A stretch of 64,000 bases of DNA from Actinomycetes bacterium (GTDB taxonomy: Bacteria > Actinomycetota > Thermoleophilia > RBG-16-64-13): positions 11,626 to 75,625 of the forward strand of contig JAGXFW010000025.1 of NCBI GenBank assembly GCA_024637035.1. The letters run 5' to 3'. Shown here in pieces: positions 42,349 through 64,000 of this stretch. Position numbers and translations under genes: made by a program. The notes beneath the pieces were generated by a model that was not told the origin of the DNA, did not search any database, and was given only the letters and a program-made list of their open reading frames with translations. Positions within the stretch are counted from its first letter, which is position 1. Every line of letters begins with the position of its first letter.

Positions 42349-42429
42349 CCAAAGACCCCCCGATATCGATGACCTCGTCCCCCGGAGGGTCGCCTGGTAG
42401 CCCCCCTCCGCCGCGTGAGGACGCGTCGG

Positions 42430-44049: not shown

Positions 44050-44077
44050 GTCTACTCCTTCGCGAGACGGACGGGCC

Positions 44078-44911: not shown

Positions 44912-44932
44912 CCGGACCCCCGGAGGAGTAGT

Positions 44933-45193: not shown

Positions 45194-45621
45194 CTGGCCT
45201 CTACCTCGGCGGCGAGGCCGGCCATCACCTGCGCAAGCGCCGGCGACTCCAAGGAGCCCAGGTAGCTGCCGTCGCCCTCTGAGATGCCCACGTGTCTGTC
45301 ATCCCCGAGGATGAGATGGAACTGCAGCCCATCGTCGCGGAACAGTACGAGCAGCAGCGCGCCCTCCCGGCGCTCTACGGGCACGTTCGACACGGGGGCC
45401 TGGTTCACGGAGGCGAGCACGTCATCGACGAACCCTCCATCACTACCCCGTTCGTGCACCTCGAACTCGCGGATGTTCGTTCCATAGGGGCCGTAGGCGT
45501 AGGAATCGATGCGCGACCCGTCGAGCAACGCGTCGGGTTGGGCGAAGTAGAAGAAGTAGGCGGCAAGACCAGCCACCAAAGCTGCCACGACGGCGAGCCG
45601 GAACGATCGCTCCGCGATCAC
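45190..45621 (-). CDS. Membrane-anchored hypothetical protein (143 aa)
   Basis: N-terminal TM (LAVVAALVAGLAAYFFYF). 4-nt overlap with neighbouring genes. Confidence 0.5.
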   Translation of the reverse strand: MIAERSFRLAVVAALVAGLAAYFFYFAQPDALLDGSRIDSYAYGPYGTNIREFEVHERGSDGGFVDDVLASVNQAPVSNVPVERREGALLLVLFRDDGLQFHLILGDDRHVGISEGDGSYLGSLESPALAQVMAGLAAEVEAR

Positions 45622-46307
45622 GGGGACCCGATCATCCCCTCCGGCAACCGAAGACCCTCGATGATCACCGTACCCCCACTCGGGGGCCGGAACGCCATCT
45701 TCGGCGTCAGGCCGGCCGGACCACGGAACGTGACGATGAAATCGAACGTAGCGCCTTTGAGAAGCGACCGAGGCCCGGGACCTGTGAGTGTAGGCTCGGC
45801 TTCGGCATACGCTCCCCCAACGTCGAGGGAGAAGTGGAGCGGGTCGATGCGAACGACGGCGTCACCGTCGTTCGAGGCACGACCGAACGCTTGGTAGTAC
45901 ACCTGTCCGGATGCCAGGCCCGGCGGTGGTGAGGTGTCGACCGGCCATCGAGGTCGGGTCGGCACCTCGGCGGGATAAAAGCTCGTGATCACGACGGCCA
46001 TTCCCGAGACGGTGAACGGCTCACCCACGCCCACACTCATCTCCACCGGAGTGCCTCCATCCGGGTTCGTGGTGCCACCCGATGCCGGTGTGCCACCGTC
46101 CGAGCAGGTGAGCTGCCGCACCCCGAAGGCGACCGCCAGCACCAGCACGACGACAGCCACGAGTCGCAACATACGCTTGTTCGGTCTCGCTCTGGTGATC
46201 CTTGCCATCAGGCGGCTCCAGGCGCCCGAGGGGCGCCGCTCTGGGAAACCCGGCCGGCCGGACGGTCGCGTGCGTGCACCCCGGGACGTCCGTGCCAAGG
46301 TCGTCAT
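45618..46307 (-). CDS. Membrane-anchored / lipoprotein-like hypothetical protein (DUF4352-like beta-sandwich)
   Basis: Signal anchor (MLRLVAVVVLVLAVAFG...TCSDGG). The true start is possibly the internal Met at about 46208. Confidence 0.5.
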   Translation of the reverse strand: MTTLARTSRGARTRPSGRPGFPERRPSGAWSRLMARITRARPNKRMLRLVAVVVLVLAVAFGVRQLTCSDGGTPASGGTTNPDGGTPVEMSVGVGEPFTVSGMAVVITSFYPAEVPTRPRWPVDTSPPPGLASGQVYYQAFGRASNDGDAVVRIDPLHFSLDVGGAYAEAEPTLTGPGPRSLLKGATFDFIVTFRGPAGLTPKMAFRPPSGGTVIIEGLRLPEGMIGSP

Positions 46308-46361
46308 GGTACCTTACGCCCGCCGTAATCGCCCACCGTCTGGGGGGACGGCATTGTCGAT

Positions 46362-47078
46362 CTACGCCTGGATCCCTCGCACCAGGAGCTCGGCCAGCGA
46401 ACGACCCATCGCGACCGGGTCCCCGTACCGTTCGCGCAGGCCGTGGCTCACGTGCACTCCGCGCGCCGCCGCCAGGAGCAACGGAGCGGTTGTGTCGGCA
46501 TCCACGTCGCGGAAGTCGCCCGCCGCCATGCCTTCCACCAAAACAGTTGCCAACTGCGCCACGAGCTCCTTCTCCACACCGTCGATGCGCTCTCTGATCT
46601 CGGCATCCACGAAGAGGGACGGGTCGCGCCGAGCCAGCGTGGATGTGCCCGCCTGCGTCGACAGACTTCCCACGTAGGCCACGAGTCCCGCGCTGAGTCG
46701 CCGCTGGAATCTCCCCTGGCCGCCTTCCGGGCCGACGACACGGCGGTCGTCGGGGCAGCCGGCGGGACGGTCGCCGCGACCCTCGTCATGCGCGTCCTCG
46801 TCGCCGCCGGCGAGCGCCTCGGAGACAGCTTCGGTGACGCACGAGCAGTGACGCTCCACCAAGGCCAGCAGGACGCCTCGCTTCGAGCCGTAGTGGTAGT
46901 ACAGGGCCGGGATCGACACACCCACACCCTCCGCGATCTCGCGCACCGAGGTGGCCGAGAACCCTTTGGCCGCGAACAGCGCATGCGCGACCACCAGGAT
47001 CCGCTCCCTCACGCTGTCGTCAGGAAGGCTGAGCGTGCCGACGTCGCCATTCGGAGTCGGCTTCACGCCCTGCTCCAT
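46362..47078 (-). CDS. TetR/AcrR-family transcriptional regulator
   Basis: N-terminal HTH (RERILVVAHALFAAKGFSATSVREIAEGVGVSIPALYYHYGSK). Divergent to an MFS pump. Confidence 0.85.
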   Translation of the reverse strand: MEQGVKPTPNGDVGTLSLPDDSVRERILVVAHALFAAKGFSATSVREIAEGVGVSIPALYYHYGSKRGVLLALVERHCSCVTEAVSEALAGGDEDAHDEGRGDRPAGCPDDRRVVGPEGGQGRFQRRLSAGLVAYVGSLSTQAGTSTLARRDPSLFVDAEIRERIDGVEKELVAQLATVLVEGMAAGDFRDVDADTTAPLLLAAARGVHVSHGLRERYGDPVAMGRSLAELLVRGIQA

Positions 47079-47132
47079 GCCACCTTGACTCTCTTCTCCA
47101 CGGTGTGGTTCAATGTGCCCCTTGTCGCTTGC

Positions 47133-47146
47133 TTAGCGAGCGCTAA
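47133..47146. promoter_or_regulatory. Inverted repeat TTAGCG-AG-CGCTAA in the divergent tetR/MFS intergenic region (candidate TetR operator)
   Basis: 6-2-6 palindrome centred between the divergent TetR regulator and MFS pump genes. Confidence 0.35.
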
Positions 47147-47193
47147 CTATAACACCCGCGCCCCGCGGAACAAGCGCGCAGGAAGGACCTGAG

Positions 47194-48876
47194 TTGGCCA
47201 ACCCCTCCCGAAGAAGATTGATAGCTGTCATGGTTGGCGTAGGCCTGGGTATGCTCCTCGCGGCCCTCGATCAGACCATCGTCTCGACCGCGATGCCCAA
47301 AGTCGTCGCCCACTTGGGCGGCTTCGAGCTCTACTCCTGGGTCTTCACCGCCTACATGCTCACCTCTACCGTCACCGTGCCCATCTACGGCAAGCTGTCC
47401 GACCTGTACGGGCGCAAGGTCTTCTTCATGTTCGGCATGGTGGTCTTCATGGTGGGTTCCGTGCTCAGCGGCGGCGCGGCCACCATGACGCAGCTCATCA
47501 TCTTCCGTGGGATACAGGGCATCGGCGCCGGTGCCCTGATGCCGGTGGCTCTCGCCGTGATCGGCGACCTCTTCCCGCCCGGGCAACGCGGCAAGGTGCA
47601 AGGACTCATGGGCACCGTCTTCGGGATATCGAGCGTGGTGGGGCCCACCCTCGGCGGCTACATCACCGACAACCTGAACTGGCGCTGGGTCTTCTACGTC
47701 AACATCCCCGTGGGGATAGCCGCGCTGGTCGTGGTGGCCTTCACTATGCCGCGCGGCAGCGCAGGCCGTCAGGGCCGTTCCATCGACTACCTCGGCGCGG
47801 CGGCCCTGGTGGCGTCCATGGTCCCGCTGCTGCTGGGTCTGTCTCAAGCCGGTGGGGACCATCCCTGGCTCTCGTCCTACATCCTCGGCCTGTTCGCCTT
47901 TTCCGCGGTCATGCTGGCGCTGTTCGTGCTCATCGAGTCACGGGTCGAAGAGCCGATCCTGCCTCTTGGCCTCTTCCGCAACAGGATCTTCAGCGTCTCG
48001 GTCGTCGCCGTGTTCTTCACGGCGGCCGGCATGTTCGGCACGATCATGTACATACCCCTGTTCGTGCAGGGGGTCATAGGGACCTCAGCCACGAGCTCAG
48101 GCTACATCCTCACCCCGATGATGATGTCGATGATCGGTTCGTCCATGATCGGCGGGCAGCTCATCAGCCGCTGGGGACGGTATCGGGTGATCGCCCTTGT
48201 CGGCCTGGGCATCATGGCCCTGGGCATGGGCCTCCTCGCGTCCATGGGCACGAGCACCACGGGCAGGACGGCCGTCTACTACATGGTGGTGACCGGTCTA
48301 GGCCTCGGAGTCACGATGCCCCTGTACGTGATCGCCGTTCAGAACGCGTTCGACCATTCCCGCATGGGAGTTGTCACCAGTGCGGTAGCCTTCTTTCGGA
48401 ACATCGGGGGGACGGTGGGCGTCGCGGTCATGGGCAGCCTGATGGCTTCGAGCTTCCAGAACCGCGTGGCAGATTCCATGCCTCAAGCCCTGAGCAACGC
48501 CCTATCGCCCGAAGCGCTCGCCACTGTCAGCAACCCCCAGGCCCTGCTGAACCCGGAGGCCCAGGCAGCCATCGCCGCCCAGTTCCCCGCCGGGCAAGAG
48601 GGCCTGTTCGCGCAGCTGCTCGACACCCTGCGCACGTCGCTGGCCGGATCGATCTCGTTGGTGTTCATGATCGGGGTGGGCGTCGTGGTGCTCGCGTGGC
48701 TGATCAACCTGTTCCTCGAAGAGATCCCGCTGCGGAAGACGCACGACTTCCCGGGTGCCGCCGAGGCCGGTCCGACTTCCCCCGACGACACCTCGCAGCG
48801 AGCAGCGCCGGTGGCTGGCGCGCTCGCGCCGCAGTCCCCCACGGCCCTCGAACCGGCGGATCAAGGGGCCGACTAG
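47194..48876 (+). CDS. MFS transporter, DHA2 (EmrB/QacA) 14-TMS drug:H+ antiporter family
   Basis: MFS motif A region (GKLSDLYGRKVFF) and 14 predicted TMS. Confidence 0.85.
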   Translation: MANPSRRRLIAVMVGVGLGMLLAALDQTIVSTAMPKVVAHLGGFELYSWVFTAYMLTSTVTVPIYGKLSDLYGRKVFFMFGMVVFMVGSVLSGGAATMTQLIIFRGIQGIGAGALMPVALAVIGDLFPPGQRGKVQGLMGTVFGISSVVGPTLGGYITDNLNWRWVFYVNIPVGIAALVVVAFTMPRGSAGRQGRSIDYLGAAALVASMVPLLLGLSQAGGDHPWLSSYILGLFAFSAVMLALFVLIESRVEEPILPLGLFRNRIFSVSVVAVFFTAAGMFGTIMYIPLFVQGVIGTSATSSGYILTPMMMSMIGSSMIGGQLISRWGRYRVIALVGLGIMALGMGLLASMGTSTTGRTAVYYMVVTGLGLGVTMPLYVIAVQNAFDHSRMGVVTSAVAFFRNIGGTVGVAVMGSLMASSFQNRVADSMPQALSNALSPEALATVSNPQALLNPEAQAAIAAQFPAGQEGLFAQLLDTLRTSLAGSISLVFMIGVGVVVLAWLINLFLEEIPLRKTHDFPGAAEAGPTSPDDTSQRAAPVAGALAPQSPTALEPADQGAD

Positions 48877-48996
48877 GGCGCCAACCCTCGGCGTCCAGCG
48901 CCCCTACGGGCGGCCGGTCAGCCCGAGCGCGGCGGCGTGCCGCCATCCTTCGTGGTGTGCCTCGAGGCTGGGACCGGGACCGGAGCCGCGCCCACG

Positions 48997-50064
48997 TCAG
49001 CGGTCGGGCGAGCCGAGTGCCTCCAGGTTCACCGGATGCGGCACCCTCGCTCCAGACAGGGCGGCGATCGCGTTCCGCGCGGCCAACTCGGCCATCCGCC
49101 CGCGAGCCGCGTGTGTCGCACTGCCGAGATGGGGGAGCAGCACCACGTTCTCGAGGCCCGCGAGGCCGGGGTGGACCGCGGGCTCATCCTCGTACACATC
49201 GAGGCCCGCGGCGCCCAAGGGACCGCCCCGAAGCGCCTCGACCAGCGCTTCTTCATGCACCACCGGACCACGTGCCGTGTTCACCAGCACGGCTCCCGGC
49301 CTGACCAAGGCCAGCTCTCGCGCCCCGAGCAGGTGATGAGTCCCCTCCGTGAGGGGCACATGCACGCTGATGATGTCGGCCTGGACCAGGAGACTGTCGA
49401 GATCGGAGCAGTAGCGCCACTCAGCCCCGGCCGGTGTTTCCGTCGCCTCGAGTGGACCGGAACGCCGCGTGTAGACCACCGGCATAGAGAAGCCCACAGC
49501 CCTACGCGCAACGGCACGCCCGATCTGGCCCATCCCAACGATGCCCAGCGTGGCGCCGGCCACATCGACGCCCAGCAACATGGTCGGCGCCCACCCGTGG
49601 AACGCGCCCGAACGCACCATGCGGTCGCCCTCCGGCACTCGGCGCGCGGCGGCAAGGATCAGAGCCCAGGCGAGGTCGGCCGTGGCTTCGGTCAAGACCC
49701 CCGGTGTGTTGGTCACCAGGACGCCGCGCGCCGTGGCCGCGGCGACGTCGATGTTGTCGTAGCCCACAGCGAAGTTGGACACGACCCGCAGTGAAGGTCC
49801 CGCCGCATCAAGGACGGCGTCGTCGATGCGCTCGCGCAGCGTGCAGAGCACCGCGGCCACTCCCCGCACCCCTTCCAGAAGTTCGACAGGGGTAAGATCG
49901 CGATCCTCCTCCCCGCCGCGCAGGGTGAGGCTGTCGCGGAGCAGGGTGGGCCCGGGCTCGGGGATCCGTCGCGTGAGGAACAGCAGCGGCTTCCCTCCGC
50001 TGGCCGTGGTCCTGTCGCGGCCGAGTGCTTCACCAGTGGCATCGTCGCCAACACCCATGCCCAC
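48997..50064 (-). CDS. D-isomer-specific 2-hydroxyacid dehydrogenase (glyoxylate/hydroxypyruvate reductase-like)
   Basis: NAD-binding GxGxxG (LGIVGMGQIGRAVA) and a catalytic His region (LLPHLGSAT). The exact start is uncertain. Confidence 0.8.
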   Translation of the reverse strand: MGMGVGDDATGEALGRDRTTASGGKPLLFLTRRIPEPGPTLLRDSLTLRGGEEDRDLTPVELLEGVRGVAAVLCTLRERIDDAVLDAAGPSLRVVSNFAVGYDNIDVAAATARGVLVTNTPGVLTEATADLAWALILAAARRVPEGDRMVRSGAFHGWAPTMLLGVDVAGATLGIVGMGQIGRAVARRAVGFSMPVVYTRRSGPLEATETPAGAEWRYCSDLDSLLVQADIISVHVPLTEGTHHLLGARELALVRPGAVLVNTARGPVVHEEALVEALRGGPLGAAGLDVYEDEPAVHPGLAGLENVVLLPHLGSATHAARGRMAELAARNAIAALSGARVPHPVNLEALGSPDR

Positions 50065-50297
50065 CTGCTCCTTCGATCGTCGGTGTCCGCGTCGCGGGCT
50101 TGGCGGCCGCCGAGCGGCCCATCACGTCGCCACGCGTGTCGCGGCGAACCGTCAGCCGCGCGCGGCCGGTAGCTCGAGTCTACGGAAAGTCTATCGCCTC
50201 GGCCCTGTCAGTCGAGACCGGCGCCACCTACAATGGCTATGGGGAATCGACCGAGGGGGGGAATGTCCTGAACGACGGTCCAGCCGCGGCACACCCG

Positions 50298-51578
50298 GTG
50301 CCTCGCACCGCCTGGTATCGCGACAGGCGGGTCTTGGCATGGGCCATGTTCGACTTCGCCAACACCCCCTACGTGGTGATCGTCGCTACCGTCGGCTTCT
50401 CCACATACTTCAAAGACGTCGTGGTGCACGGCGCCCGCTCGGGTGACTTCCTCTGGGGTCTGGCCGGATCTGCCTCCATGATCTTCGTGGCCCTCACCGC
50501 CCCGTACCTGGGTGCCTACGCCGACGCGGCCGCGGCCAAGCGCCGCCTCCTCTTCATCTACACGCTTGTGGTCGTGCTGGCGACGGCGCTCCTCGGCACG
50601 GTGAAGGAAGGCATGGTCGTCTGGGCCATGCTGCTGTATGTCTTGGCCAACATCGGGTTCCAGGGCGGGCAAGCCTTCTACAACGCCTTCCTCCCCGAGG
50701 TGGCCCGCGATGAAGACCTGGGGGCGGTCTCTGGACTCGGCTCCGCCGCCGGGTACGTGGGCGCCCTCCTCTCTCTCTTCGCGGCGCTGCCGTTCTTCTG
50801 GAACGGATTCGAGGAGACGAATCTCGGCAACGTGCGCGGTATGTTCGTGGCTGTCGCCGTGGTCTTCGCCGTGTTCAGCATCCCCACGTTCGTACTACTG
50901 CGTGACGCACCGCGTCCACGAACGGCACTCGCGAACTCGGGATTCGTGGCGAGTCTGCGCACCCTGAAGGAGGACCTCACCAATCTGCGCAAGAACCGGG
51001 CGCCCTTCCTCTTCCTGGTCTCCTATCTTCTCTACATGGACGCGATCACCACGATGACGGCCTTCGTGGGGATCTACGCCCGTCAGACTCTCGGACTCAG
51101 TCTCCCGCAGATATTCAGCCTGCTCATCATCTCCCAGATCACGGCGATCCCCGGCTCGGTGGTGCTGGGCCGGGTAGCCGATCGCTACGGTGCGAAACCC
51201 ACGATCACGTGGCTTCTCATGCTATGGATAGTCATGTTGATACTGGGCGTCGTCGCCACCGGCTACTCGATGCTCGTCTTCATGGTGCTCCTGGCAGGGG
51301 TGGCCACCGGTGGGCTCTTCTCGGTGAGCCGCAGCATGATGGCGCTTCTCTCGCCCAAAGACCGCGAAGGCGAGTTCTTCGGTTTCTACGCGGTGGCGGG
51401 GCGCATCTCGGCGATAATCGGGCCGGTGGTGTTCGGGGCGGTGTCGTCGATCTCGGGGAACCAGCGGCTGGCGCTGGGCTCGTTGCTCATCATCATGGTC
51501 GCCGGATTGCTCGTGCTGCGGCGAGTGCCTATGGATGCTGCGGCTGCGGACCGGGCCGCGAGCGGGACCGCGCCATGA
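50298..51578 (+). CDS. MFS transporter, UMF1/Atg22-like family
   Basis: WAMFDFANTPY motif and a 12-TMS profile. The start is uncertain; the GTG at 50298 was chosen. Confidence 0.7.
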   Translation: MPRTAWYRDRRVLAWAMFDFANTPYVVIVATVGFSTYFKDVVVHGARSGDFLWGLAGSASMIFVALTAPYLGAYADAAAAKRRLLFIYTLVVVLATALLGTVKEGMVVWAMLLYVLANIGFQGGQAFYNAFLPEVARDEDLGAVSGLGSAAGYVGALLSLFAALPFFWNGFEETNLGNVRGMFVAVAVVFAVFSIPTFVLLRDAPRPRTALANSGFVASLRTLKEDLTNLRKNRAPFLFLVSYLLYMDAITTMTAFVGIYARQTLGLSLPQIFSLLIISQITAIPGSVVLGRVADRYGAKPTITWLLMLWIVMLILGVVATGYSMLVFMVLLAGVATGGLFSVSRSMMALLSPKDREGEFFGFYAVAGRISAIIGPVVFGAVSSISGNQRLALGSLLIIMVAGLLVLRRVPMDAAAADRAASGTAP

Positions 51579-52555
51579 GCGACTTCGCCTCACAGCCGCC
51601 GCCCGAACCTCCCGCACCGCCCGATCCACCGCTGGCGCCGCCACCCGGCCGCGTGCGCGTAGGCACCTGCTCCTGGACGGACAAGACCATGCTCGCGTCC
51701 TGGTACCCGAAGGGCGTCACCTCGGCCGAAGAGCGCCTGCGCTACTACGCGGAACGCTTCGACACGGTAGAGGTGGACTCCAGCTACTACGGCCTGCCCT
51801 CCGAGCGCAACTCGGAGCTGTGGGCGGAGCGCACTCCGCCGGGCTTCACCTTCCACATCAAGGCCTTCGCCATGCTCACGCGGCACGCCGTGCGCCCGAA
51901 CCAACTGCCGGTGCCGCTCCGCTCCGCCTACGATCTCGAGGTGGACAAGTACGGCCGGGTGATCCACCCCCCCGATGAGTTGCGAGAGACGGTGTTCGAG
52001 TGGTTCTCGGCGGCGCTCACTCCGCTGCGCGAAGCGGGCAAGCTGGGCCTCATCCTGTTGCAGTTCCCGCCCTACTTCGTGGCCGACCTGCGTAACCGCG
52101 AGTACATCCTCCGGGCGGCCGAGTTGCTGGCGCCCGACCCCGTGGCCGTGGAGTTCCGCCACGCGAGCTGGGTGTCGAGCGACGAACTCCCCCGCACTCT
52201 CGCCCTCCTCGGCGACAACGACCTCGCCTACGTGTGCGTGGACGAACCCCGGCTCGACTCGCCCACCGTCCTACCGCCCCTCGCCGCAGTGACGGCGCCC
52301 GCCGCCTACGTGCGTTTCCATGGGAGGAACTCCGCAACCTGGAACGCCCGGGTGGAGACCGCGGCCGAGCGCTTCCGCTACCTGTACGCGGAGGATGAGT
52401 TGCGGGAGTGGGTGGAGCCCATCACGACGATGGCGAGCGAGGCCGACACCACCTACGTCATGTTCAACAACTGCTACAGCGACTACGCCCCCCGCAACGC
52501 CTCGCAGCTCTCCGGCCTTCTGAACCTGGGCCCGGCTACGCCCGGCGTAGAATGA
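51575..52555 (+). CDS. DUF72 (UPF0759) family protein
   Basis: Start ATG overlaps the upstream stop as ATGA. Conserved DUF72 segments (RVGTCSWTD... YYGLP... FHIKAF). Confidence 0.8.
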   Translation: MSDFASQPPPEPPAPPDPPLAPPPGRVRVGTCSWTDKTMLASWYPKGVTSAEERLRYYAERFDTVEVDSSYYGLPSERNSELWAERTPPGFTFHIKAFAMLTRHAVRPNQLPVPLRSAYDLEVDKYGRVIHPPDELRETVFEWFSAALTPLREAGKLGLILLQFPPYFVADLRNREYILRAAELLAPDPVAVEFRHASWVSSDELPRTLALLGDNDLAYVCVDEPRLDSPTVLPPLAAVTAPAAYVRFHGRNSATWNARVETAAERFRYLYAEDELREWVEPITTMASEADTTYVMFNNCYSDYAPRNASQLSGLLNLGPATPGVE

Positions 52556-52558
52556 GAC

Positions 52559-52587
52559 GGGGCCCCGGCCTGATCGGCCGGGGCCCC
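52559..52587. terminator. GC-rich hairpin between convergent genes (candidate bidirectional intrinsic terminator)
   Basis: Perfect 12-bp inverted repeat GGGGCCCCGGCC-tgatc-GGCCGGGGCCCC between the DUF72 stop (52555) and the trpB2 stop (52652). There is no U-tract. Confidence 0.45.
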
Positions 52588-52651
52588 GCATCGCACTTCA
52601 GGTCCACGAGCGGCGCCGCCCTGGCGGCGGCGACGGTCGCGTCTCTTCGAG

Positions 52652-54007
52652 CTATCCTACCTTCGGCAGGCGAGCCTGAGCTTCGAGCACCTTCTCTTCC
52701 GGATACGCGTAGTCCTGAAGGTTGCCCGAGAGGTAGTTGTCGTAGGCGGCCATATCGAAGTGGCCGTGACCGCTCAGGTTGAACAGGATGGTCTTGGCTT
52801 CGCCGGACTGCTTGCACTGCTCGGCGGCGTTGACCACACTGGCGAGAGCGTGCGAGCTCTCGGGGGCCGGGATGATGCCCTCGGTGCGAGCGAACTGCAC
52901 GGCGGCCTTGAAGCAGGCGTTCTGCGTGTAGGCCTCAGCTTCGATCAAGCCGAGATCGAGAGCATGGGACACCATCGGAGCCATACCGTGGTAGCGCAGG
53001 CCACCGGCGTGGATGCCGGCCGGCACGAAGTCGTGACCCAGAGTGTGCATCTTGAGCAGCGGCGTCAACATGCCGACGTCGCCGAAGTCGTAGGCGTAGA
53101 TGCCCTTGGTGAGGCTCGGACAGGCCGCGGGCTCGACCGCGATGATGCGGGTCTCTTTGCCCTCACGGATCTTCTTGCCGATGAACGGGAAGCTGATGCC
53201 GGCGAAGTTGGAGCCACCGCCCGCGCACCCGATGACGATGTCGGGGTATACGCCGGCGTCGGCACACTGCTCCATGGCTTCCTGACCTATGACGGTCTGG
53301 TGGTGCATCACGTGGTTGAGCACGCTACCAAGAGAGTAGTGGGTGTCGTCGTTCGTGGCGGCCACTTCGACGGCCTCGCTGATGGCCATACCGAGGGAGC
53401 CGGTGGAGTCGGGATCGTTGGCCAGGAAGGCGCGGCCGGCGTTGGTGGTGTCCGACGGGCTCGGGATCACTTCCGCGCCCCAGGTATGGATCATGCTGCG
53501 CCGGTACGGCTTCTGCTGGTAGGAGATCTTCACCATGTAGACCAAGAGCTCCATGCCGAACATCTGGCAGGCCATAGAGAGCGCGGAGCCCCACTGGCCG
53601 GCGCCGGTCTCGGTGGTCAGCTTGGTGATGCCTTCCTGCTTGTTGTAGTACGCCTGCGGCACCGAAGTATTGGGCTTGTGCGAACCGGCCGGGCTGACGC
53701 CTTCATACTTGAAGAAGATCTTCGCCGGGGTGTCGAGTGCCTTCTCCCAGTGGGGCGCCCGGTACAGCGGCGTGGGCCTCCACAGCTTGTAGATGTCCTG
53801 CACTTCTTCCGGGATCTCGATGTAGGGCTCCGGGGTCATCTCCTGCATGATCAACGCCATCGGGAAGAGAGGCGCTAGATCGTCAGGTCCAGCCGGCTGC
53901 AGCGTGCCTGGATGCAACGGCGGCGGCAATGGGGCCGGGAAATCCGAGTTCAGGTTGTACCAGGACGTCGGCATACGGTCTTCCGACAAGAAGTACTTCG
54001 TCGCCAT
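52652..54007 (-). CDS. trpB2: TrpB-like PLP-dependent enzyme (tryptophan synthase beta chain 2 family, TrpB2)
   Basis: PLP-Lys context (GSHKPNT) and a Gly-rich PLP phosphate loop ([11 protein letters not shown]). 451 aa, typical of TrpB2. Confidence 0.85.
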
Positions 54008-54112: not shown

Positions 54113-54457
54113 CGGGGTAGATTGGCTTTTGCAGGCAAAATCCTTCACAAGCCGGGTTCGACGGTGCGCGAAATGACTCGTCGCGATGGGCTTATTGACC
54201 GCCGGGCCGGTATCTCGGGTGCGCCCGGGCGGGCGTGTGCTGGCGCGTCGTCGACCGGTCGCCCGAACGGTCCGTCCTTGAATGTCCGCGGAGGGTGCAG
54301 TCGGAGTTGACCCGAGACAAGGTTCTAGACACAGCGCCCGGCAGCCGTATACGATGCGCCTCAAAGCTGAAACTTGGCAAGCAGACCGAACAGTCAGCCA
54401 GCAGTTCGGTGCCTGAGCCGCAGGTTCCAGCCCACACGCAGACACCGGGAGGGGCAA

Positions 54458-57400
54458 TGAGGCAGAGGGGTCTCGGCAGGTGTGTCTCCGTCGCTGTGTT
54501 GCTCGTAGCGCTTGGCGCTCTTACCCTCTTCCTCGGTGGTCCAATGACACCGGCTCTGGGTGTGTCTCCATCCATTTCCACAGAGCCGGGCGTGGTACGC
54601 GAACTCGTTGAAAAGCGTACGGCCAACTCTCAGACCTTCCTGCTTTCCGACGGGCGGCTGCGCGCGGTCGTCAGCAGCGGCTTCGTCAACTACCGCGACG
54701 AGAGTGGCGCCTGGCGGCAGATAGACACACGTCTGGTGGCTGGCACGAGGTCCGGCGACTACGTATCCGCCGCGACCCCGATCGAGGTCACCGCAGCTTC
54801 AGACTCGCCGGCTCGTGTCTCTCTCGCCTATCAGGACTCCACCATCACCCTCGGTCCGAAGAACGCCCGTCCCGCACAGTTCAGCGTGCGGGATTCCGTT
54901 GCCACCTATCGCGGCATCGCGACGGACGCCGACCTCACCTACCAGGTCCTCGGCGACGGCGTGAAGGAGACCATCGTCCTGCGCTCTCCCAAGGCGGCGA
55001 ACACCTACACCTTCACCATCTCCCACCCGGGCCTGCTCCTGATGCAGGATGAGACGACCGGGCAGTGGGGGCTCCGCACCGCCATGGAGCACGACCCGCT
55101 CTTCGTCCTCGGTGGCTTGAACGTCGCCGACTCCTCAGTGAACGAAGCCGGCGATCCCGCCTACTCTGATGAGGCCGAGATGCGGGTGGAGCCGGGCACC
55201 GAGGAGAGCACCGTCACCTACACCGTCCCGCGCTCCTGGCTCGACGACAAGGAGCGCGTCTACCCGGTCCTCATCGACCCCACGGTCACCGCTGTCGCCT
55301 CCACGGGGGACACATTCGTATCGAGCGCCTCCCCCAACACCAACTACGGGTCCGATGACGACATGCACGTCGGGTATTACGACTCGACCACGGGTGACTG
55401 TCGTGGCCTCGTTCGGTTCGACCTCCCTGCCGACCTCCTCACCGGCGGCTACGTGCAGAGCGCCGATCTCTACCTGCGCCAGAACTGGCAGTCGGTGCTC
55501 GCCCCGAGCGTGGCCCGTGTGGGAGCCATCGACCGGGCCTGGAGCGAATCGAGCACCTACAACTCCCTCGGTGGCCACTACATCATCGAGGCCAAGGAGG
55601 TCGCCACCGTCGCGGCCCGGGCCCAGGACCTGCATTTCGACTTCACCCAGATGGTGCAACGGTGGGCCACCGGCAAGTACGTGAACCACGGGTTCGTGAT
55701 CTACCAGGAGTGGACCGAAGGGCAGACCTACTGGCGGAAGATCCTCAGCAAGGAGCACCCGACCTCGAGTTACAGACCCAAGCTCACCATCACCTACACC
55801 GCGCCACTCGACGTGACCGCTTCCCCGTTCAACGCGAAAGGAGACGGCACGACCGATGACACCGCGGCCATACAGGGCGCCATCAACGCCGCCGACCCGA
55901 ACGGCGGAGTCGTCTACTTTCCGAGCGGCACGTACAAGGTGGGCGGCTTGAACCTCGCCAAGAGCAACGTCGTACTCCGTGGTCTGGGCACCGCGAGCGT
56001 GCTCGTGCCCGCGTCCGCGGCGCAAGGTCATCTTATCCAGGTCGGTGGGGCGACCGCCGTCACGAACGTGCTCGTCGAGAACCTCAACCTGCGCCTCCCC
56101 CCGTCGGGCGGCGGGGTGAGTGTGGCGGGCGCGGGCGGAGGCAGCAACGTGCGCATCCGTAACAACACCTTCTCCGGAGGCAACGACTCGGCGACCACTC
56201 ACGCCCTTGGTGTGGCCGCGAACTTCACCTCAGTCGAGGTCACCGACAATGACTTGGCGCTGGTCACTTCGGTGCCGCTCGACATCGAAGGGGACTCCGG
56301 GTCTGAGCGCATCGTGGCCCGGAACACGATGCCAACCGCCCCCTACCAGGCCGACCTCATGTGGGGCATCGACCGCTACCAGACGGCCATCCGCCTCTCT
56401 CAAGCCGCCTTCCCCACCTGGGCAGAAGGAGTGGTGCTGGTCTCTGGTGAGAACTACCCAGACGCGCTCTCCGCAGGTCCCCTAGCAGCGGCCTACGACG
56501 GGCCCACCCTGCTCACGCAAGCGGCTTCACTCAATGTGGGCACCAAAGCGGAGTTGCAGCGCTTGAACCCAAGTCGGGTCTTCGTCGTCGGTCTCGGCAC
56601 CTCAATATCGGACGCGGTCACACACGCCCTGCCCTCAGCCCAGGTCACTCGGCTCGCGGGCCCCAGTCGGTACGACACAGCCGCCTTGGTGGCCGCAGAG
56701 GTCAAGACCAAGCGCTCCCTCGACGGCCTCAGCGTCACCAAGGTGGTCATCGTCCCCGGTGACGGCTACCCCGATGGACTCACCTCTGGACCCATGGCGG
56801 CCAAGAACGGCTGGCCCATCCTCCTCACCCCGAAAGCCGGGCCCATACCCGCGGCCACGCAGACCGCCTATCAGACTACCCTCGGCGTGAACCAGGCCGT
56901 CGTGGTGGGCGTGAACGCCGGCGTGGCTATCCCCGGCATCGAAAGTCACCGCATCAACGGTGCCGACGTCTTTGCGACCTCCAGTCTCGTGGCTCAGTAT
57001 GCCGTGCAGAACGGCTCCTCCTATGCCCACACCGCGCTTGCCACCGGCCTCAACTTCCCTGATGCTCTGGCCGCAGGCTCCTACCTCGGCGCCGACGGAG
57101 GCGTACTGCTCCTCACCAACGGGACCTCGATCGCTCCGGACTCGGTGGCGCTCCTCGAGGCGAACTACGCCGCCCTTGATACCCTCGACTACATCGCCCT
57201 CCCCTCGCTCTGGGAGGCCGATGAGAACTGCGGCGCTTGGCTGCCCGAGGCGCCGCAGCACACCTCGGTGGGCCTCGGTGCCTTCGCGCGACACGAAATG
57301 GGTGTCAGACTCGACCAAGGAACCCTGCAGGTGGCGGTCACTGACCTCGCCATCGACTCCTTCGGCCCCTCAGCCACGCTCACCCGGGTCTACTCCTCGT

Positions 57401-60400
57401 CGCGGACCTCGGAGCGGACGGCCGAGACCCTGGGCCTCCCGGGGTGGCGGTATACGTTCGAGCAGTCGCTCAGTTTCCCGAACGCCAACAGGATCGACTA
57501 CACCGATCCAACGGGCGACATCCACATTTTCGTGCGGAGCGGCCCCTCGACGGCCGATTGGTGGACACCGCCGGCGGGCTACGCCGCCAACCTCGGGAAA
57601 GACGGCAGCGCGTGGAAGCTGAAACTCCCCGGCGGGAACACCCTCGTCTTCGACTCCTCCGGCAGGTTGCTCTCCGAGGCCGACCCCAACGGCAACACCA
57701 CCACCTACAACTACACCGGGGGCGTTATCGACAGCATCAAGGCCGCGAACGCCCAGGTGATCGACGTGACCGTGAGCGCCGGCGCGTTGACCGGTGCTGT
57801 CTACACGACAGCCGACGGCGTGCGAGCAGTCGCATACGACAAGGCGGCGAAGACCGTGACCTACTTCCCAGGTGTCTCCGGCCTTGAGCACGTCGTGAAC
57901 TACACCTACTCGGGTGATCTACTCTCATCCATCAAGGCTCTCGACTACACTACGAGCAGCGATCCGGCGGCGGCGTTCACCTATTCGTCCGATCGCCTCA
58001 CCCAGTACAAGGCGCCCGACTACAACGCCACGACCAATACCGACGCCCGCACCGAGATCGCCTACGGCACGAAGACGGCCACACTCACCGCCTACGGGTT
58101 CGTGTATTCTGCCTCGGCCATCACCGGTGCCGCGAACACCCAGATCACCCAAACCTTCACCTGGAACGATTCCGGCACCATGGCCTCGAAGACGAATCCG
58201 AAGACGTCGTCCGAGACCACGACTGAGACCTGGTACTACCAATACGAGCCGAGGACCAACCTCCCGACTAAGGAGACCGACCCGCTCGGCAAGACCCGCA
58301 CCTGGACCTACAACCTGCGTGGGAACCAACTCACCGAGACCGACCAACTGAACCGGACCACCACCTACTCGTATCCTGACACCGACCCCGGCATCCCGCA
58401 CTACCTGCAGATCCGGGTAGCTGCGGACGGAGACGACGCACGCAAAGAGGGCCCGACTGTCTACGCGACCGGGTCCGCCTGGCAGGCCGTGGGGAAGGGC
58501 TCTTCGGTGCTCAGCGAAGGCTGGCGCTTCCGGAACGTGGACATCCCCAAAGGGGCCACGGTCCGCGACGCCCGGGTCCACCTCTACGCAGCGTACGACG
58601 CGAACGGCAATCCGGCTTCGGTGGTCTCGAAGATCGGTCTGGAGGCCGCGGACAACCCCGGGGCGTGGGCGCAGACGACGCACGAGCCCATCCTCAGCAA
58701 GCTGACCACCACCCAGGCGGCCTGGTCGGTAAGTGCCTGGAAGCAGGGGCAGTGGTACTCCTCACCCGATCTCTCCGCCTCGGTCACCGAGGTGATCGGG
58801 CGCACCGGCTGGGCGGCCGGGAACTCCATGGCCGTCATCTGGGCCGATAACGGGACCGCAAGCGGCAACTACCTGAAGTCGGGCGACTACTACGGCGGGA
58901 ACCCGGCGCTCTTCACCGTCTACTACACCGTCCCCTTCGACCCAAACCGCGACGAAGTGGGCGGGGTCACCGACCCCCTCGGGTCGAAGACTACGGTCAC
59001 CCGCGACAAGAACACCAACCCCACCGAGGTCACACGCACTCTGAACGCGACCCAGTCGGAGAGCACCAAGTACACCTACGAGGACGAAGCGGTCGGCTCC
59101 GCCACCTACAAGGGCGCTCTCACACTGGAGGAGAAGCTCATCAGCGGCACATGGGGCGGTGCCAACGCTGCCACTGCCACCGACTACGACACCGGCGGCT
59201 ACGCGACGAACGGACAACCGAACAAGGTGGTCCAGAAGACGGTGGCGCTGCAGGAAGGCCAGTCCTCTCCACCCGACCTCACCACCACCTACACCTTCGA
59301 CGACTTCGGCCAACTCGAGAAGGAGACGAACCCTGACGAGGTACTTGTGGCCGACAACACCTACGACAAAGCCGGTCGGCTGCTCATTTCGATCGGCCCC
59401 GCCTTCCCCTCCGGAGGGGGTCCTGCCACCCAGGTGAAGACCCACCACGTGTACAACGGCTGGGGGTTCGAGACCGAGACCTATCAGACTTCGACCGCCG
59501 ACCCCGGGGCCGCCAAGTACAACCGCTCGGTGGTCGCCTACGACCGTGCCGGTCGGGTCCTGACGGTCAAGGATCGCTTGAGTTCCACGACGTTGGTGCG
59601 TATACGCACCAACATCTACGACGGCCGAGGACTCCTCATCTCCACCGACGACACCACGGTCAGCGACCTTGACGCGCGCACCGCGTACGACGCCCGGGGC
59701 CAGGTGGTCGCGTCGTGGGCGGGCGGCGCCTGCACGGGAACCGACTATGAGATCGCCAAGGCCACCCGCTACCTCGATGGAACCACCCCCGCCTATGACG
59801 CTCTCGGTCGAGTGACAAAGAGCGCTCCCCCGGGCGACAACCCCACCACCTTCACCTACTACGACGACGGGCGCCTTCACACCAGGGTGCTGCCCGACGG
59901 CTCGCAGGAGACCTACACCTACGACGCCGGCGGCAACCTCACGCAGACCGTCTCCACCAAGGACGGCACGAGCTCGGCCACCTACGACCTCGGCGGGCGC
60001 CGCCTGACCCAGACGAGCGCCGCCGGCCTCACCACGAGCTTCGCCTACGATCTCCTCTCCCGGATCACGAGCGCCGGCGCGGGTCCGGCCGCCTCCACCT
60101 ACGCTTACAACACCCTCGGCTGGCAACTACGGGTGACCGACGCCGACGGCTTTGCGACGGTCCGCGTCTTCGACAAACTCGGACGCACGATCTCGGAGAC
60201 GACCGCCGATGAGACCACCACCTCGACCTACGACCCCGCCGGACACCTCACGAAGCAGGTGGATCATCAAGGCCGCTGGCGGGAGCTCTCCTATGACCTC
60301 ATGGGGCGGGTGACGCGGGATCTGCAAACCTTGTCTGGCACCCCACGGGTCTCGGTGAAGGACACCACCCTCACCTACGACTCGCTCGGGCGGGTGCTCA

Positions 60401-62394
60401 CCACCTCCGACGCCGTTCGCAATCTGGGGCACACCCTGACCTACCCGGAGAACACCCCCGCCCCCACCACCGACCAGGCCGTGGTGGGCACCACAGGCAC
60501 CGACGCCGTCCAGACCACCCTCACCGTGGCTGCTGACGGATACGAGACCAGCCGAGCGAGCGAAATCTACAGCAACCCCGCACTCCCCACCATCACCCGC
60601 ACGGTGGGCCCGCGCGACACCGCGCACCGTCCGACCCAAGTCACCACCCAGACCGGCGCCTCCACCTCCATCTCTGCCCAGTACTCCTACGACACCGCCG
60701 GACGCCTGAAGCGTCAATGGGGTCCCACGGGCGCCGCGGGCTCCGGCTACCTCGCAGGTGCCGCCACCACTGACGCCTATACCTACCACCCGACCACAGG
60801 CCTAAAGACCGGCGAGAACCTCCGCCTCCAGAGCGTAGGCACGGCCGGGGTCCTCACCGCCTCCTACACCTACACGACCGCCGGCCGCCTGGCGACCGCC
60901 ACCGTGAACGGCGTCTCCGACACCACCACCTTCGACCCAGCCGGGAACCTCACCAGCTTCACCGGCACCACCCTCACCTATCAAGAGAACCGCCTGGCCA
61001 CCACCGTCACCGGTGGCGCCACCACCTACTACACCTACGATGCCGGGAAGCGCTGGCGTCTCTCCCAAGGCACGACCACCAACACGAGCGACCCGAACCG
61101 CATCCGCTACACCTACACGGCCCAAGGGCGCTTGGCCACCTACCTGAACCCGAGTACCTCCGTCTCCGCCGCCTACACCTACGACCAAGAGGGCCAGCGC
61201 ACGCAGTCTGCGGTGACCATAGGTTCGCAGACCACCGCCACCGACTTCTCCTACCAGGGACTCCAGCTGCAGAGCCTGGGAGCCACACAAAGCGGCGGCA
61301 CCAACCCCACCTCCTGGAAGGTCACCTACCTCTACGACGAGCAGGGCCGCCCCTACGGCGGTGTCTACCGGAGCCCGAAGGAGAGCATCGCCCCTCTATA
61401 CTTCGGCATCCTGACGAGTGACCGAGGCGACATCGTCTCCCTCCTCGATGCAAACGGCACCCCCTTCGCCGCCTATCGCTACGACGCCTGGGGCAAGCCC
61501 ACCGGCACGGGGAACGTCGGGACCGGCGTGTGGAGCAAGTCCACGAGTCTCATCTCCGCCGGAGTCGCAAGCGCCATCGCGACCCGACAGATCCTCCGCT
61601 ACGCGGGCTACGCTTTCGACCAAGAGAGTTCCCTCTACTACCTCTCCTCCCGGAGCTACGACCCCGTCACCCGACAGTTCCTCTCCAAGGACCTCTCCCG
61701 CAACGACGGGGAAGAGAGTGCCTACCAGTACTGCGGAGGGAACCCGGTGGCGGGGGTGGATCCTACGGGGTATCGGATGGACGAGTTCGCAACGTCGCAG
61801 GAGCGGCAGGCGGCGGAGATCTCCCGGGGTAGGATCAAGAAGGCACAGAGGGCGTCGAAGGCACGGGTGCAGCGGCGGAGATTGGACGAGAAGGGCCCCA
61901 AGCTACCTACATCTGCTGGAAACCGATTGCGGGGCCTTGGAGTTGCGCTCGATTTATTCACGGGATACGGTTCGCGAGACCGTGTGTACAGCCCATCGTC
62001 CCCCGAGACCAATGAGATGCGACATGCCTGGGGCCGAGACATGCGCGATGCCTTCGCTAAGGAAGACTACCGGTCTACCAGGTGGAAGTCGGGTCATGTT
62101 ACGCCCTTAGTGATGCAGTTGGCCTCTGGTCCCGACATCTTCAACACCATGAGCCAGGCCGGCGGTGTCTCGGGTACTGTAGCGCCCTTACCGGATGGGA
62201 GGGCCAAGTTCGAAATCACAAACGAGGCCGGGAGGGAGTCGTTCTTCAATTTCATCAACCTACCGCTTGAGCTGTTGGTGCTCGGTTCAGCCAACAGCCC
62301 AGTCATCTCGAATGCTGACAAGGAAGAGGGTCCCTGGAGCACGATACGGCAGACCTTCTACTGGTATGAGTCCATGGAGGACCTTACAAGATGA
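54458..62394 (+). CDS. RHS/YD-repeat polymorphic toxin with cell-wall-anchoring N-terminal domains and a C-terminal toxin domain of unknown family
   Basis: Start refined to ATG 54458 (GGGAGGGG RBS), followed by a signal peptide (MRQRGLGRCVSVAVLLVALGALTLFLGGPMTPALG). N-terminal domains: a DNRLRE-like domain (DGRLRA ... NTNYGSDDDMHVGYY ... LVRFDL), a pectate-lyase-like beta-helix (GDGTTDDTAAIQGAINAA ... VYFPSGTY) and three CWB2 repeats (YQTAIRLSQAAF...; SRYDTAALVAAEV...). Repeat region: many YD repeats (YTYDAGGNLTQ etc.) and an RHS core ending at YDPVTRQFLSKDLSRNDGEESAYQYCGGNPVAGVDPTGY. The final tip is a roughly 200-aa unclassified domain. Confidence 0.9.
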
Positions 62395-62864
62395 CCAAGA
62401 GCAGTCGTCGTGTGCGGGGATGCGGAACGACTGCCATCGCGGTCGCGCTGGCCCTGATCGGGTTGACGGCAGCATTGATGTGGCCGTTCCCAGTCTCCGA
62501 CGGCCATCCCTCCGGCCTTGTCGGGACATGGAAAGGAGAGGGCGTGCCGTTTGAGATGAGATCTTCGAGTGAAGACAACGAATTTCAAGTGGTGCTCATT
62601 TTGGCTCCCGACGGGTCGAGCCACGAGGAAATCTGGCGGGCTGGTCGCTTGGAACGGACTCTCTCCGGGAGTTGGGTCGTCGAAGGTGGTCGTCTGCGGG
62701 TCACGTTCATCGACCCAACACTTGACGACGTGCAGATGGAGCCACCGGCTCGGATGTCGGTCCCCGTCTACTGGGGCCTCAGCCAAGGTACCTACATTGA
62801 TGGCGGTGGCCATGGGGATGCCGGCATCGCCTTGCACAAGACGTCCTCCGAGGTCTCCCGATGA
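62391..62864 (+). CDS. Putative cognate immunity protein (membrane-anchored, lipocalin-like)
   Basis: Start overlaps the toxin stop as ATGA. N-terminal signal anchor/TM (TAIAVALALIGLTAALMW) and GTWKGEG...RVTF. Confidence 0.55.
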   Translation: MTKSSRRVRGCGTTAIAVALALIGLTAALMWPFPVSDGHPSGLVGTWKGEGVPFEMRSSSEDNEFQVVLILAPDGSSHEEIWRAGRLERTLSGSWVVEGGRLRVTFIDPTLDDVQMEPPARMSVPVYWGLSQGTYIDGGGHGDAGIALHKTSSEVSR

Positions 62865-62994
62865 GTAGTCGAGTGGTGGGTAGCGGAGGAGGGAGCGGCC
62901 GCTGCCATCGCAGAGACGATCAAGCCTTTGGGGGCTGATATCGTTGTACGCCTACGAGGGCCTGGCGCAAGGCTCGCTGCGGACCCCGAACACT

Positions 62995-64000
62995 ATGGGT
63001 TTGAACACGCAAAGCGGCGGCACCAACCCCACCTCCTGGAAGATCACCTACCTCTACGACGAACAGGGCCGCCCCTACGGCGGCGTCTACCGGAGCCCGA
63101 CAGAGAGCACCACCCCCCTCTACTTCGGCATCCTGACCTCAGACCGAGGCGACATCGTCTCCCTCCTCGACGCCGCCGGCGCCCCCTTCGCCGCCTACCG
63201 CTACGACGCCTGGGGCAAGCCCACCGGCACGGGGAACGTGGGGACCGGCGTCTGGAGTAAGAGCACCGGCCTCATCAGCCTGCAGGTGGCCACCGACCTG
63301 GCCAAGCGCCAACCCCTGCGCTACGCTTCCTACTGCTACGACGCAGAGAGCTCCCTCTACTACCTCTCCTCCCGGAGCTACGACCCCACAACGAGGCAGT
63401 TCCTCTCCAAGGACCTCTCCCGCAACGACGGGGAGGAGAGTGCGTATCAGTACTGTGGGGGGAACCCGGTGGCAGGGGTGGATCCTACTGGGTATCGGAT
63501 GGACGAGTTCGCGACGTCGCAGGAGCGGCAGGCGGCGGAGATCTCCCGGGGTAGGATCAAGAAGGCGCAGAGGGCATCGAAGGCACGGGCCATGTACAGA
63601 CGACTGAACCCAGGGGAGTCTGCAGCCAAGGAGGGCACCGCGTTCTCAGCGTCCCTATCCGTGCCCGGAGGCATGCGCGGACTGCTGAACCGCTTGTCCT
63701 TCGACCCCACTCCTTATCGCTACAGGGATAAAGGGTCGAACGTAGGGGTTCCTGGTGTTCCTATCGGCGTGAGCAACGGCACGGCCGTCAACTACGGGCC
63801 CACCGGGAGGGCGGTCTCCTCTGTTCCCTACGACGGCATGTACTTGGGCGGCCTACCCGCCTACTACGATCAGACTGGCTACGGTAGTGTTGAGCCCAAC
63901 ACCCGGTATGTGCAGGGTGGTTTGGGGTTCATCGTAGGTGCCAACTTCAGTATGAACCTCTCACGGATCGGCGACGCCTACTCAGCTGCCTATGAGCCCG
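62995..64000 (+). CDS. Orphan RHS C-terminal cassette (RHS core fragment plus alternative toxin tip), partial, continues beyond the window
   Basis: A frame open from 62884 to the window end that is not in the ORF track. It encodes GTNPTSWKITYLYDEQGRPYGGVYRSP ... YYLSSRSYDPTTRQFLSKDL...GGNPVAGVDPTGYRMDEFATSQERQAAEISRGRIKKAQRASKAR, which is near-identical to residues about 2279-2470 of the upstream RHS, followed by a divergent C-terminus. The first in-frame ATG is at 62995. Confidence 0.7.
   Translation, partial: MGLNTQSGGTNPTSWKITYLYDEQGRPYGGVYRSPTESTTPLYFGILTSDRGDIVSLLDAAGAPFAAYRYDAWGKPTGTGNVGTGVWSKSTGLISLQVATDLAKRQPLRYASYCYDAESSLYYLSSRSYDPTTRQFLSKDLSRNDGEESAYQYCGGNPVAGVDPTGYRMDEFATSQERQAAEISRGRIKKAQRASKARAMYRRLNPGESAAKEGTAFSASLSVPGGMRGLLNRLSFDPTPYRYRDKGSNVGVPGVPIGVSNGTAVNYGPTGRAVSSVPYDGMYLGGLPAYYDQTGYGSVEPNTRYVQGGLGFIVGANFSMNLSRIGDAYSAAYEP

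Follow-up and report, generated by a model that had tools for sequence, protein, structure and literature searches.

A probable WapA-class RHS toxin locus with a coupled, membrane-anchored immunity gene and a spare toxin cassette in an uncultured actinobacterium

Where does the toxin carried by a giant RHS protein of an uncultured actinobacterium act, how would its producer be protected from it, and how might the toxin be exchanged for another? These questions are raised by a locus at the end of a 64,000-nucleotide stretch of contig JAGXFW010000025.1 (assembly GCA_024637035.1), henceforth called the window, in which an RHS gene is followed by a small gene for a membrane-anchored protein and then by a further RHS fragment with a different C-terminal tip. 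The locus probably represents a Sec-exported and cell-wall-anchored RHS toxin of the WapA class in an uncultured member of the Actinomycetota, accompanied by the gene for its immunity protein and by one or more silent spare cassettes. As such, the RHS/WapA/orphan-cassette system is of a well-known and very common kind, by which bacteria poison their neighbors in a manner that is well understood; the families to which its toxin and its immunity protein belong are unnamed.

The RHS gene is an ATG-initiated open reading frame (ORF) at 54457..62394 on the forward strand, as are all the parts of the locus described below, with its stop codon at 62392-62394 and a ribosome-binding site (GGGAGGGG) 4 nt 5' of the ATG. 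The initial annotation had the length of its product right, at 2,645 amino acids (aa), and its start off by one nucleotide, at 54458. This ORF is certainly a real gene as opposed to a chance reading frame, because its product matches the profiles of the CWB2 repeat (PF04122, E 2.7e-37), the RHS repeat (PF05593, E 7.6e-32), the DNRLRE domain (NCBIfam NF033679, E 2.1e-29) and the Rhs-associated core (TIGR03696, E 2e-16). The protein shares a cluster of at least 90% identity with MBU2604254.1, a protein from a metagenome-assembled genome (MAG) that is labeled 'MAG: cell wall-binding repeat-containing protein [Actinobacteria bacterium]'.

From its N- to its C-terminus, the protein displays a Sec-type signal peptide (about aa 1-36, MRQRGLGRCVSVAVLLVALGALTLFLGGPMTPALGV; 54457..54564), a DNRLRE domain (aa 285-446; 55309..55794), the start of a pectate-lyase-like beta-helix (aa 458-522; 55828..56022; Pfam PF12708, E 6.1e-13), three CWB2 cell-wall-binding repeats (aa 637-919; 56365..57213; matched in three stretches, with the boundaries drawn from the sequence), an RHS/YD shell region delineated by Pfam and NCBIfam matches (57319..61773), a 31-aa linker and a 175-aa tip. 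The extreme N-terminus (MRQRGLGRCVSVAVLLVALGALTLFLGGPMTPALG) combines a basic MRQRGLGR segment, a 20-aa hydrophobic core and a PALG c-region, and is of the Sec type by inspection. The shell region opens with a DUF6531 plug (aa 955-1025; PF20148, E 1.7e-4), continues with the YD/RHS repeats (five stretches matched by PF05593 and eight by TIGR01643, E 2.7e-23) and closes with the Rhs-associated core (aa 2371-2438). No PAAR, VgrG, LXG or WXG domain is matched in the protein by Pfam or NCBIfam.

The end of the core reads ...GGNPVAGVDPTGY (aa 2427-2439) and is followed by 206 aa up to the C-terminus; within it, PVAGVDPTGY (aa 2430-2439) fits the PxxxxDPxGL boundary motif with a Y in place of the L. 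The structures of Rhs proteins reveal a shell that encloses the tip and an aspartyl protease in the C-terminal plug; two DPLGL motifs lie 17 aa apart, and the protease cuts behind the second of them (PMC8636562). In the window's protein, DPTGY stands as the second of these cleavage-type motifs, with its aspartate (D2435) present; 18 residues upstream, the first motif has the degenerate form DLSRN. On the N-terminal side of the shell, the pattern P[VI]xxxxG[EN], which captures the N-terminal Rhs autocleavage signature D-P-V-x-x-x-x-G-E, matches nowhere in the RHS protein, and the stretch equivalent to that site reads HEMGVRLDQGTL (window 57250-57330, aa ~940-960); by its sequence, any N-terminal processing of this protein would have to use another site. 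The D-PVxxxxGE signature is not universal among Rhs proteins.

These features place the protein closest to WapA, the architecture of which is on record from Gram-positive bacteria. Like WapA/WapI of Bacillus subtilis and WapA-CT of Streptococcus suis, it presents a Sec signal, a wall-binding module, a YD/RHS shell and a PxxxxDPxG(L) boundary, with a variable C-terminal toxin, an immunity gene directly 3' and no adaptor domain for a type VI or type VII secretion system (T6SS, T7SS). The WapA of B. subtilis carries CWB2 too. That of S. suis is built from a Sec signal, DNRLRE, LysM repeats, two Rhs fragments and a PreT-CT toxin, and so shares with our protein the DNRLRE domain near the N-terminus (PMC12704120). 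In place of its LysM repeats, however, the wall module here consists of the three CWB2 repeats and the beta-helix. Further differences from WapA are the host, an uncultured actinobacterium, and an insert of about 180 aa devoid of YD repeats, which is recognized by inspection of the sequence within the shell region (aa 1313-1492; 58393..58932). This insert, which reads IPHYLQIRVAADGDD...ALFTVYYTV, gives a weak match to DUF3344 only (E 0.016); it may separate the shell into two parts, a layout reported in S. suis WapA, or serve as a surface-exposed binding module.

The candidate immunity gene lies at 62391..62864 and encodes a 157-aa protein that bears a transmembrane (TM) anchor at its N-terminus and a predicted extracytoplasmic all-beta domain. 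Its start overlaps the RHS stop codon as ATGA, with a GGAGGA ribosome-binding site upstream, an arrangement by which the gene is, on sequence grounds, translationally coupled to the RHS gene. The membrane-anchored ORF of this length and its ATGA overlap had both been described beforehand, and each of them is found in our analysis, as are its coordinates. The N-terminus of the protein is basic, and a single hydrophobic helix comes next; because positive charges precede this helix, an N-in, C-out orientation is predicted. A putative lipocalin-like barrel would then lie outside the membrane. No Pfam or NCBIfam profile matches the 157-aa protein, and its 18 relatives have no Pfam match at or above threshold.

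Beyond the immunity gene, after a gap of 19 nt, a further frame remains open from 62884 to 63999, that is, for 372 codons up to the end of the window without a stop. It contains an orphan 3' end of an RHS core (62947..63495; TIGR03696, E 3.6e-17), homologous to aa 2264-2439 of the main gene and likewise ending in DPTGY, and its tip diverges from that of the main gene from 63589 onward; this bears out the initial annotation, which had proposed an additional RHS C-terminal fragment with another tip that runs off the window. Against residues 2264-2477 of the main gene the orphan shows 83% amino-acid identity. At the DNA level about 640 bp are shared, with 87.6% identity over 587 nt; the last 200 nt before the junction are ~93% identical between the two copies, with synonymous differences there. 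Between the immunity gene and the orphan we found no promoter-like or terminator-like site, nor could any start codon of the orphan be paired with a ribosome-binding site.

The shared sequence does not stop at the predicted cleavage site. Identity between the main gene and the orphan collapses, within one codon, only at 61867/63589, and hence the recombination junction lies not at DPTGY but 31 residues later. The intervening basic linker (RMDEFATSQERQAAEISRGRIKKAQRASKAR, RMDEF...ASKAR; 61774..61866) is thus a constant region, repeated in the orphan (63496..63588) with 100% amino-acid identity and a few synonymous DNA differences. The variable tip, which had been taken to span some 200 aa starting from the end of the core, is accordingly about 175 aa long. 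With the consensus RMDEFATSQERQAA(E/D)ISRGRIKKAQRASKAR, the linker precedes five different tips: those of the window's main gene and orphan, those of the proteins P0001 and P0002, and that of the main RHS gene of a sister locus, L002, described below. Since it lies after the predicted autocleavage site, it would stay on every released toxin; besides being a target for recombination, it may also act as a 'pre-toxin' or delivery helper.

The visible part of the orphan's alternative tip (63589..64000) amounts to 137 aa, is rich in glycine (e.g., GGLGFIVGANFS) and has no Pfam match. Its similarity to the tip of P0001 indicates a distant relationship (31% identity over 126 aa, E 7e-6), and the length of P0001 suggests that about 40 aa of the orphan tip lie past the end of the window. 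Searches for the sequence beyond position 64000 yielded no extension in exact look-ups of the RHS protein and of P0001, no relative in a scan of genome contigs, only a 1.2-kb Logan contig in an exact look-up of the immunity protein, and only a 2.2-kb contig (L003) in a scan of metagenome contigs. In the latter (837-962), the orphan-tip query was matched only at residues 1-42, with 76% identity, a segment that includes the linker.

That such cassettes are displaceable, as the initial annotation had surmised, finds support in the sister locus L002 (7334-13681 of JGI 3300033553, Ga0371479_10653358, a metagenome), the RHS core of which is near-identical to that of the window. Its linker lies at ~9150-9240, and at the same junction as in the window its main RHS gene carries a different tip, which resembles Ntox24 (E 5.4e-5, just under the Pfam cut-off) and is followed by an Imm53 gene (E 8.9e-31), by its own orphan (P0002) with the same linker, and by small ORFs with two TM helices. 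Thus, tips vary behind near-identical cores and different tips are followed by different ORFs; to find another pair of tip and immunity gene at this junction is direct evidence, from comparison, that the two are replaced together there. Two of the small ORFs in L002 (10934-11161 and 12740-12976) are paralogs of ~75 aa with two TM helices each, and both contain 'LGPEW'; they may be immunity genes for the glycine-rich tips.

A comparable organization is known from the T6SS-delivered Rhs proteins with orphan rhs-CT/rhsI arrays of the Enterobacteriaceae and from Photorhabdus Rhs1 (PMC8636562). The window shares with these the YD shell, the aspartyl autocleavage motif and the polymorphic tips, and its orphan, like theirs, is promoterless and retains the 3' part of the core for recombination. 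In contrast to them, it shows no PAAR, VgrG or Eag-chaperone context and has a Sec-type export signal instead; further, its first motif is DLSRN, its second ends in Y rather than L, and its junction is displaced to 31 aa past the cleavage motif. Drawing on published work on Rhs and WapA, we advance the following mode of action. The RHS protein would be exported by Sec and retained in the wall through its CWB2 repeats, with the YD shell enclosing the tip. Cleavage after DPTGY by the core's aspartyl protease would then release the linker and tip onto or into a neighboring cell. Recombination across the shared 640 bp could, in turn, swap the expressed tip and immunity gene for the pair of the orphan.

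What, then, is the expressed tip? The variable region proper spans aa 2471-2645 (61867..62391), within which homolog searches and an AlphaFold2 model delimit a structured alpha+beta domain at ~aa 2485-2643. The earlier impression that the C-terminal domain belongs to no recognizable toxin family is borne out by our searches: the 206-aa C-terminal region has no match in Pfam or NCBIfam even at E<=10 or E<=1, and the named tip families (the Ntox and Tox- families of Pfam, and those of NCBIfam) do not match the window's tip. When the 206-aa region was used in a k-mer-seeded search of 5.8 billion proteins, only the linker was matched. A phmmer search against 1.84 billion cluster representatives returned 18 matches, of which 17 are genuine, with 33-40% identity (the best being P0003, E 3e-16); the remaining one, P0018, was dropped as a low-complexity false positive.

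The match to the tip lies at the C-terminal end in all 17 homologs, and most of them are preceded by the end of an RHS core (YDPxxGRF...NPxNxxDPxGL), which some (e.g., P0003, P0005 and P0006) do not show. A profile search extended the set to 67 clusters, all of them metagenomic and, where named at all, labeled 'hypothetical' or 'RHS repeat-associated'; none of the 67 contains a Pfam toxin domain. Altogether, the tip has about 80 metagenomic relatives (counted as sequence clusters) from several phyla, with MAGs of the Kiritimatiellae, Pirellulaceae, Ignavibacteriaceae and Planctomycetota represented in addition to the Actinomycetota; of the members for which N-terminal sequence is available, most come after the end of an RHS core. 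The tip is a member of a rare, unnamed RHS-associated family; it is uncharacterized, as the initial annotation held, and is not unique. The family is recognized by the signature FLxDFLxGxGxxxRxY, ETxEMxxSPGAxxLR, QVGGF, NNGDGTVTFTIxNxAG, SFFYH and GPMRTIxQTFxWTE. Seven members give Pfam matches to CFSR, which we set aside as they cover a 23-aa beta-hairpin only and are not domain matches; the other Pfam signal among family members is to Cadherin_5 in three of them (best E 0.0097).

Genes for Y1 transposases (IS200/REP-type, PF01797) were observed adjoining toxin/immunity cassettes of the family on three unrelated contigs (L004, 7418-8437; L005, 1204-2205; L012, 2398-3396). The transposase ORF of L005 has a faint match to RHS_repeat.

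The AlphaFold2 model of the tip, computed from an alignment of 58 sequences (predicted local distance difference test score, pLDDT, 80.6; predicted template modeling score, pTM, 0.75), packs two long helices on a five-stranded antiparallel sheet. Neither a comparison of the family profile with the sequences in the PDB nor a comparison of the model with its structures yielded a significant match. Several polar residues are near-invariant in the family (R60, Q97, N119, S125, H129, Q162 and E168), and their conservation suggests an enzyme; in this numbering, residue 1 of the 175-aa tip is aa 2471 of the RHS protein, and Y41 also belongs to the invariant residues. Relatives of colicin M recur in the structural comparison, weakly and not significantly. 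One reading that builds on this recurrence is that the tip is a remote colicin-M-like enzyme, which cuts the pyrophosphate link of lipid II or of other undecaprenyl-linked precursors, with the immunity protein in the role of Cmi or TipC. The resemblance is to the catalytic domains of the colicin M family (ColM, PaeM, pectocins and syringacin M), and the single TM anchor of the window's immunity protein is shared with Cmi. We nevertheless regard this reading as unlikely: the Pfam Colicin_M profile matches neither the window's tip nor any of 18 family members, the DxYDx5HR motif is absent from the tip, and the delivery scaffold differs from that of colicin M.

Part of the evidence on the site of action comes from the genes that follow the tips. 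In one locus (L013), the end of the RHS core is near-identical to that of the window, and the tip P0003 is followed by a TM-anchored ORF with the same ATGA overlap; this ORF, which is interrupted by a scaffold gap, reads MKPKYAIAIAGATVLVVVVIALITIMLVVRGGVADGHPKDLLGKWSS...VVLTLRADGSYE, matches the window's ORF in BLASTP (E 2e-6) and shares with it '(V/A)DGHPxxLxGxW...VVLxLxxDGS'. The question of whether the window's downstream ORF is conserved beside homologous tips, which the initial annotation had posed, can thus be answered in the affirmative: besides this relative, a small ORF for a membrane-anchored protein or a lipoprotein comes after each of eight further tips. Variants of the window's ORF itself were recovered from other samples, one with a single substitution (P0101) and one with 86% identity (P0090).

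Across the family, a small exported or membrane-associated ORF follows the tip in 9/9 of the homologous loci with readable downstream DNA. In the distant loci L004, L005, L006, L007/L008, L014 and L016 it bears an N-terminal TM helix or a lipobox (LAGC in L006, LLGC in L016), and a pattern of the form 'hxG(T/V)(W/Y) ... hxLxxDG(T/S)F ... GxW' recurs among these ORFs. The one in L004 overlaps its RHS gene as GTGA, and L014 comprises a complete 1,434-aa RHS protein in a MAG of the Kiritimatiellae. In L015 (2425-2898), from an uncultured MAG of the Pirellulaceae, the gene after the tip encodes a polytopic membrane protein of 157 aa and not a single-anchor barrel protein; it represents another kind of putative immunity to this toxin family, unrelated to the first.

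A further pointer is a pair of cysteines, one in a 'GC' column and the other in the C-terminal tail (corresponding to tip residues 68 and 172-175 in the family alignment). Among the 58 sequences, 35 have both, 3 only the one, 7 only the other and 13 neither (Fisher p 8.5e-6); this covariation is suggestive of a disulfide, as expected in an oxidizing compartment. Since the partners are all exported or membrane-associated, the immunity protein is predicted to be N-in/C-out and the cysteine pair of the family covaries, the envelope outside the cytoplasmic membrane is most likely where the toxin acts, be it on a lipid-linked wall precursor, on peptidoglycan or on the membrane itself. [quoted passage not shown] By analogy, the window's immunity protein would bind and block the tip at the outer face of the membrane. 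The parallel concerns the proposed inner-wall-zone toxin and the TM-anchored immunity protein; no relationship in sequence or fold to TelC or TipC was detected. RHS- and Sec-based delivery stands here against LXG and the T7SS, and the crescent-shaped alpha/beta structure of TipC contrasts with the beta-barrel predicted for the window's immunity protein.

The same evidence bears on the opposite proposition, namely that the tip has a cytoplasmic target, such as nucleic acids or a cofactor, and that the membrane ORF is either not an immunity gene or blocks import. WapA provides the incentive for it, as the characterized B. subtilis tips are reportedly tRNases (Koskiniemi et al. 2013); the basic linker could help entry, and the window's own tip has no cysteine pair. 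Yet the adjoining ORF is exported or membrane-anchored in every one of the readable loci, none of which offers a coupled small cytoplasmic ORF in its stead, and the cysteines do covary across the family as a whole. Moreover, the tip displays no nuclease, deaminase or ADP-ribosyltransferase motif and no Pfam match. It differs from WapA in belonging to an unnamed family and not to the tRNase type, and in having a membrane-anchored as opposed to a cytoplasmic immunity protein. A cytoplasmic target is, in our estimation, improbable.

If an extracytoplasmic site is accepted, the membrane itself might be the target, with the tip as a non-enzymatic or membrane-active toxin (pore-forming or depolarizing) and the downstream membrane proteins as shields. 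In keeping with this, all downstream partners are membrane-associated, that of L015 is polytopic in the manner typical of immunity to pore formers, and the subclade of the window and P0003 has a hydrophobic 15-aa insertion (INLPLELLVLGSANSPV). Such a toxin is hard to reconcile with a model that is compact, soluble and alpha+beta, without long hydrophobic helices, or with near-invariant polar residues that resemble an active site more than a pore former, and we give it little credence. The more specific alternative that we put forward, tentatively and as a possibility more doubtful than the general architecture of the locus, is that the ~150-aa domain represents a new enzymatic toxin fold that destroys an extracytoplasmic component of the envelope (e.g., a lipid-linked precursor) in both monoderms and diderms and is neutralized by a family of membrane-anchored, lipocalin-like barrels. 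Were this true, toxin and immunity protein would form a new pair, and the envelope target might be new as well. A Tc-toxin directed against eukaryotes or insects was also considered and rejected, there being no TcA/TcB genes, and wall-binding repeats and a coupled immunity gene being present.

Several observations weigh against the picture of the locus and of its toxin that we favor. First, some of its structural elements are softly defined: the signal peptide and the membrane topology were called by eye only, and the model of the immunity protein is of low confidence (pLDDT 53.7). Second, outside L013 the similarity between the window's ORF and the distant downstream ORFs is weak (hhalign E 6e-4, probability 29%), and relatives of the lipoprotein type also occur without a neighboring toxin (L010, 4001-4573; L012, 4001-4441; GCPxVDTKELNFTR...); these may be orphan immunity genes, but would also fit a broader family with a wider role. 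Third, the 3' end of the orphan and the orphan's immunity gene lie beyond the window. Finally, the window's tip and P0003, which form a divergent subclade, lack both cysteines, and the window's tip departs from the family at S54A, Y128N, N108L and H129F, positions kept in 54-56 of 58 members; to judge from this loss of near-invariant residues (S54, N108 and H129), it could have altered or lost its activity.

Pressed to its end, the last point would make the window's copy decayed or neofunctionalized, its toxicity lost and the locus a relic. Apart from the four substitutions, the features of the locus speak against this: the RHS ORF is intact, the immunity gene is both intact and coupled, and both genes are kept in a second sample with a divergence of 1 aa or 14% (P0101 and P0090). 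Likewise, P0003 has the same deviations and still keeps a coupled immunity gene, which suggests a functional subclade. We therefore hold a relic to be very unlikely, and retain the reading of the locus as a WapA-class toxin with its immunity gene and spare cassette.

The local G+C content is 59-69%. Ten ORFs were scanned upstream of the RHS gene (41197-54007), of which eight have matches, all metabolic, transport-related or regulatory: a pyridoxal-phosphate-dependent enzyme (PALP), a DUF72 protein, two transporters of the major facilitator superfamily, a 2-hydroxyacid dehydrogenase, a TetR regulator, a methylmalonyl-CoA mutase and a succinyl-CoA ligase; the other two have none. Among these ten ORFs adjoining the RHS gene there are no T6SS, T7SS, sortase or SecDF-like genes, and the absence of a SecF-like or sortase gene upstream sets the locus apart from WapA. 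Across the whole window, neither a gene for a tRNA or tmRNA nor a match to an Rfam family at gathering score was found.

In conclusion, the locus documents a WapA-type RHS toxin, dependent on Sec and CWB2, in an uncultured member of the Actinomycetota, with the recombination junction mapped to a position after a conserved post-cleavage linker. It also defines an unnamed toxin family of ~80 sequence clusters from several phyla, for which there is a confident structural model that has no significant neighbor in the PDB. The steady pairing of this family with exported and membrane-anchored partners leads to the prediction that the toxin works outside the cytoplasmic membrane. Toxins that target the envelope have repeatedly led to druggable steps of wall synthesis, and for this reason the tip family is a reasonable candidate for biochemical study.

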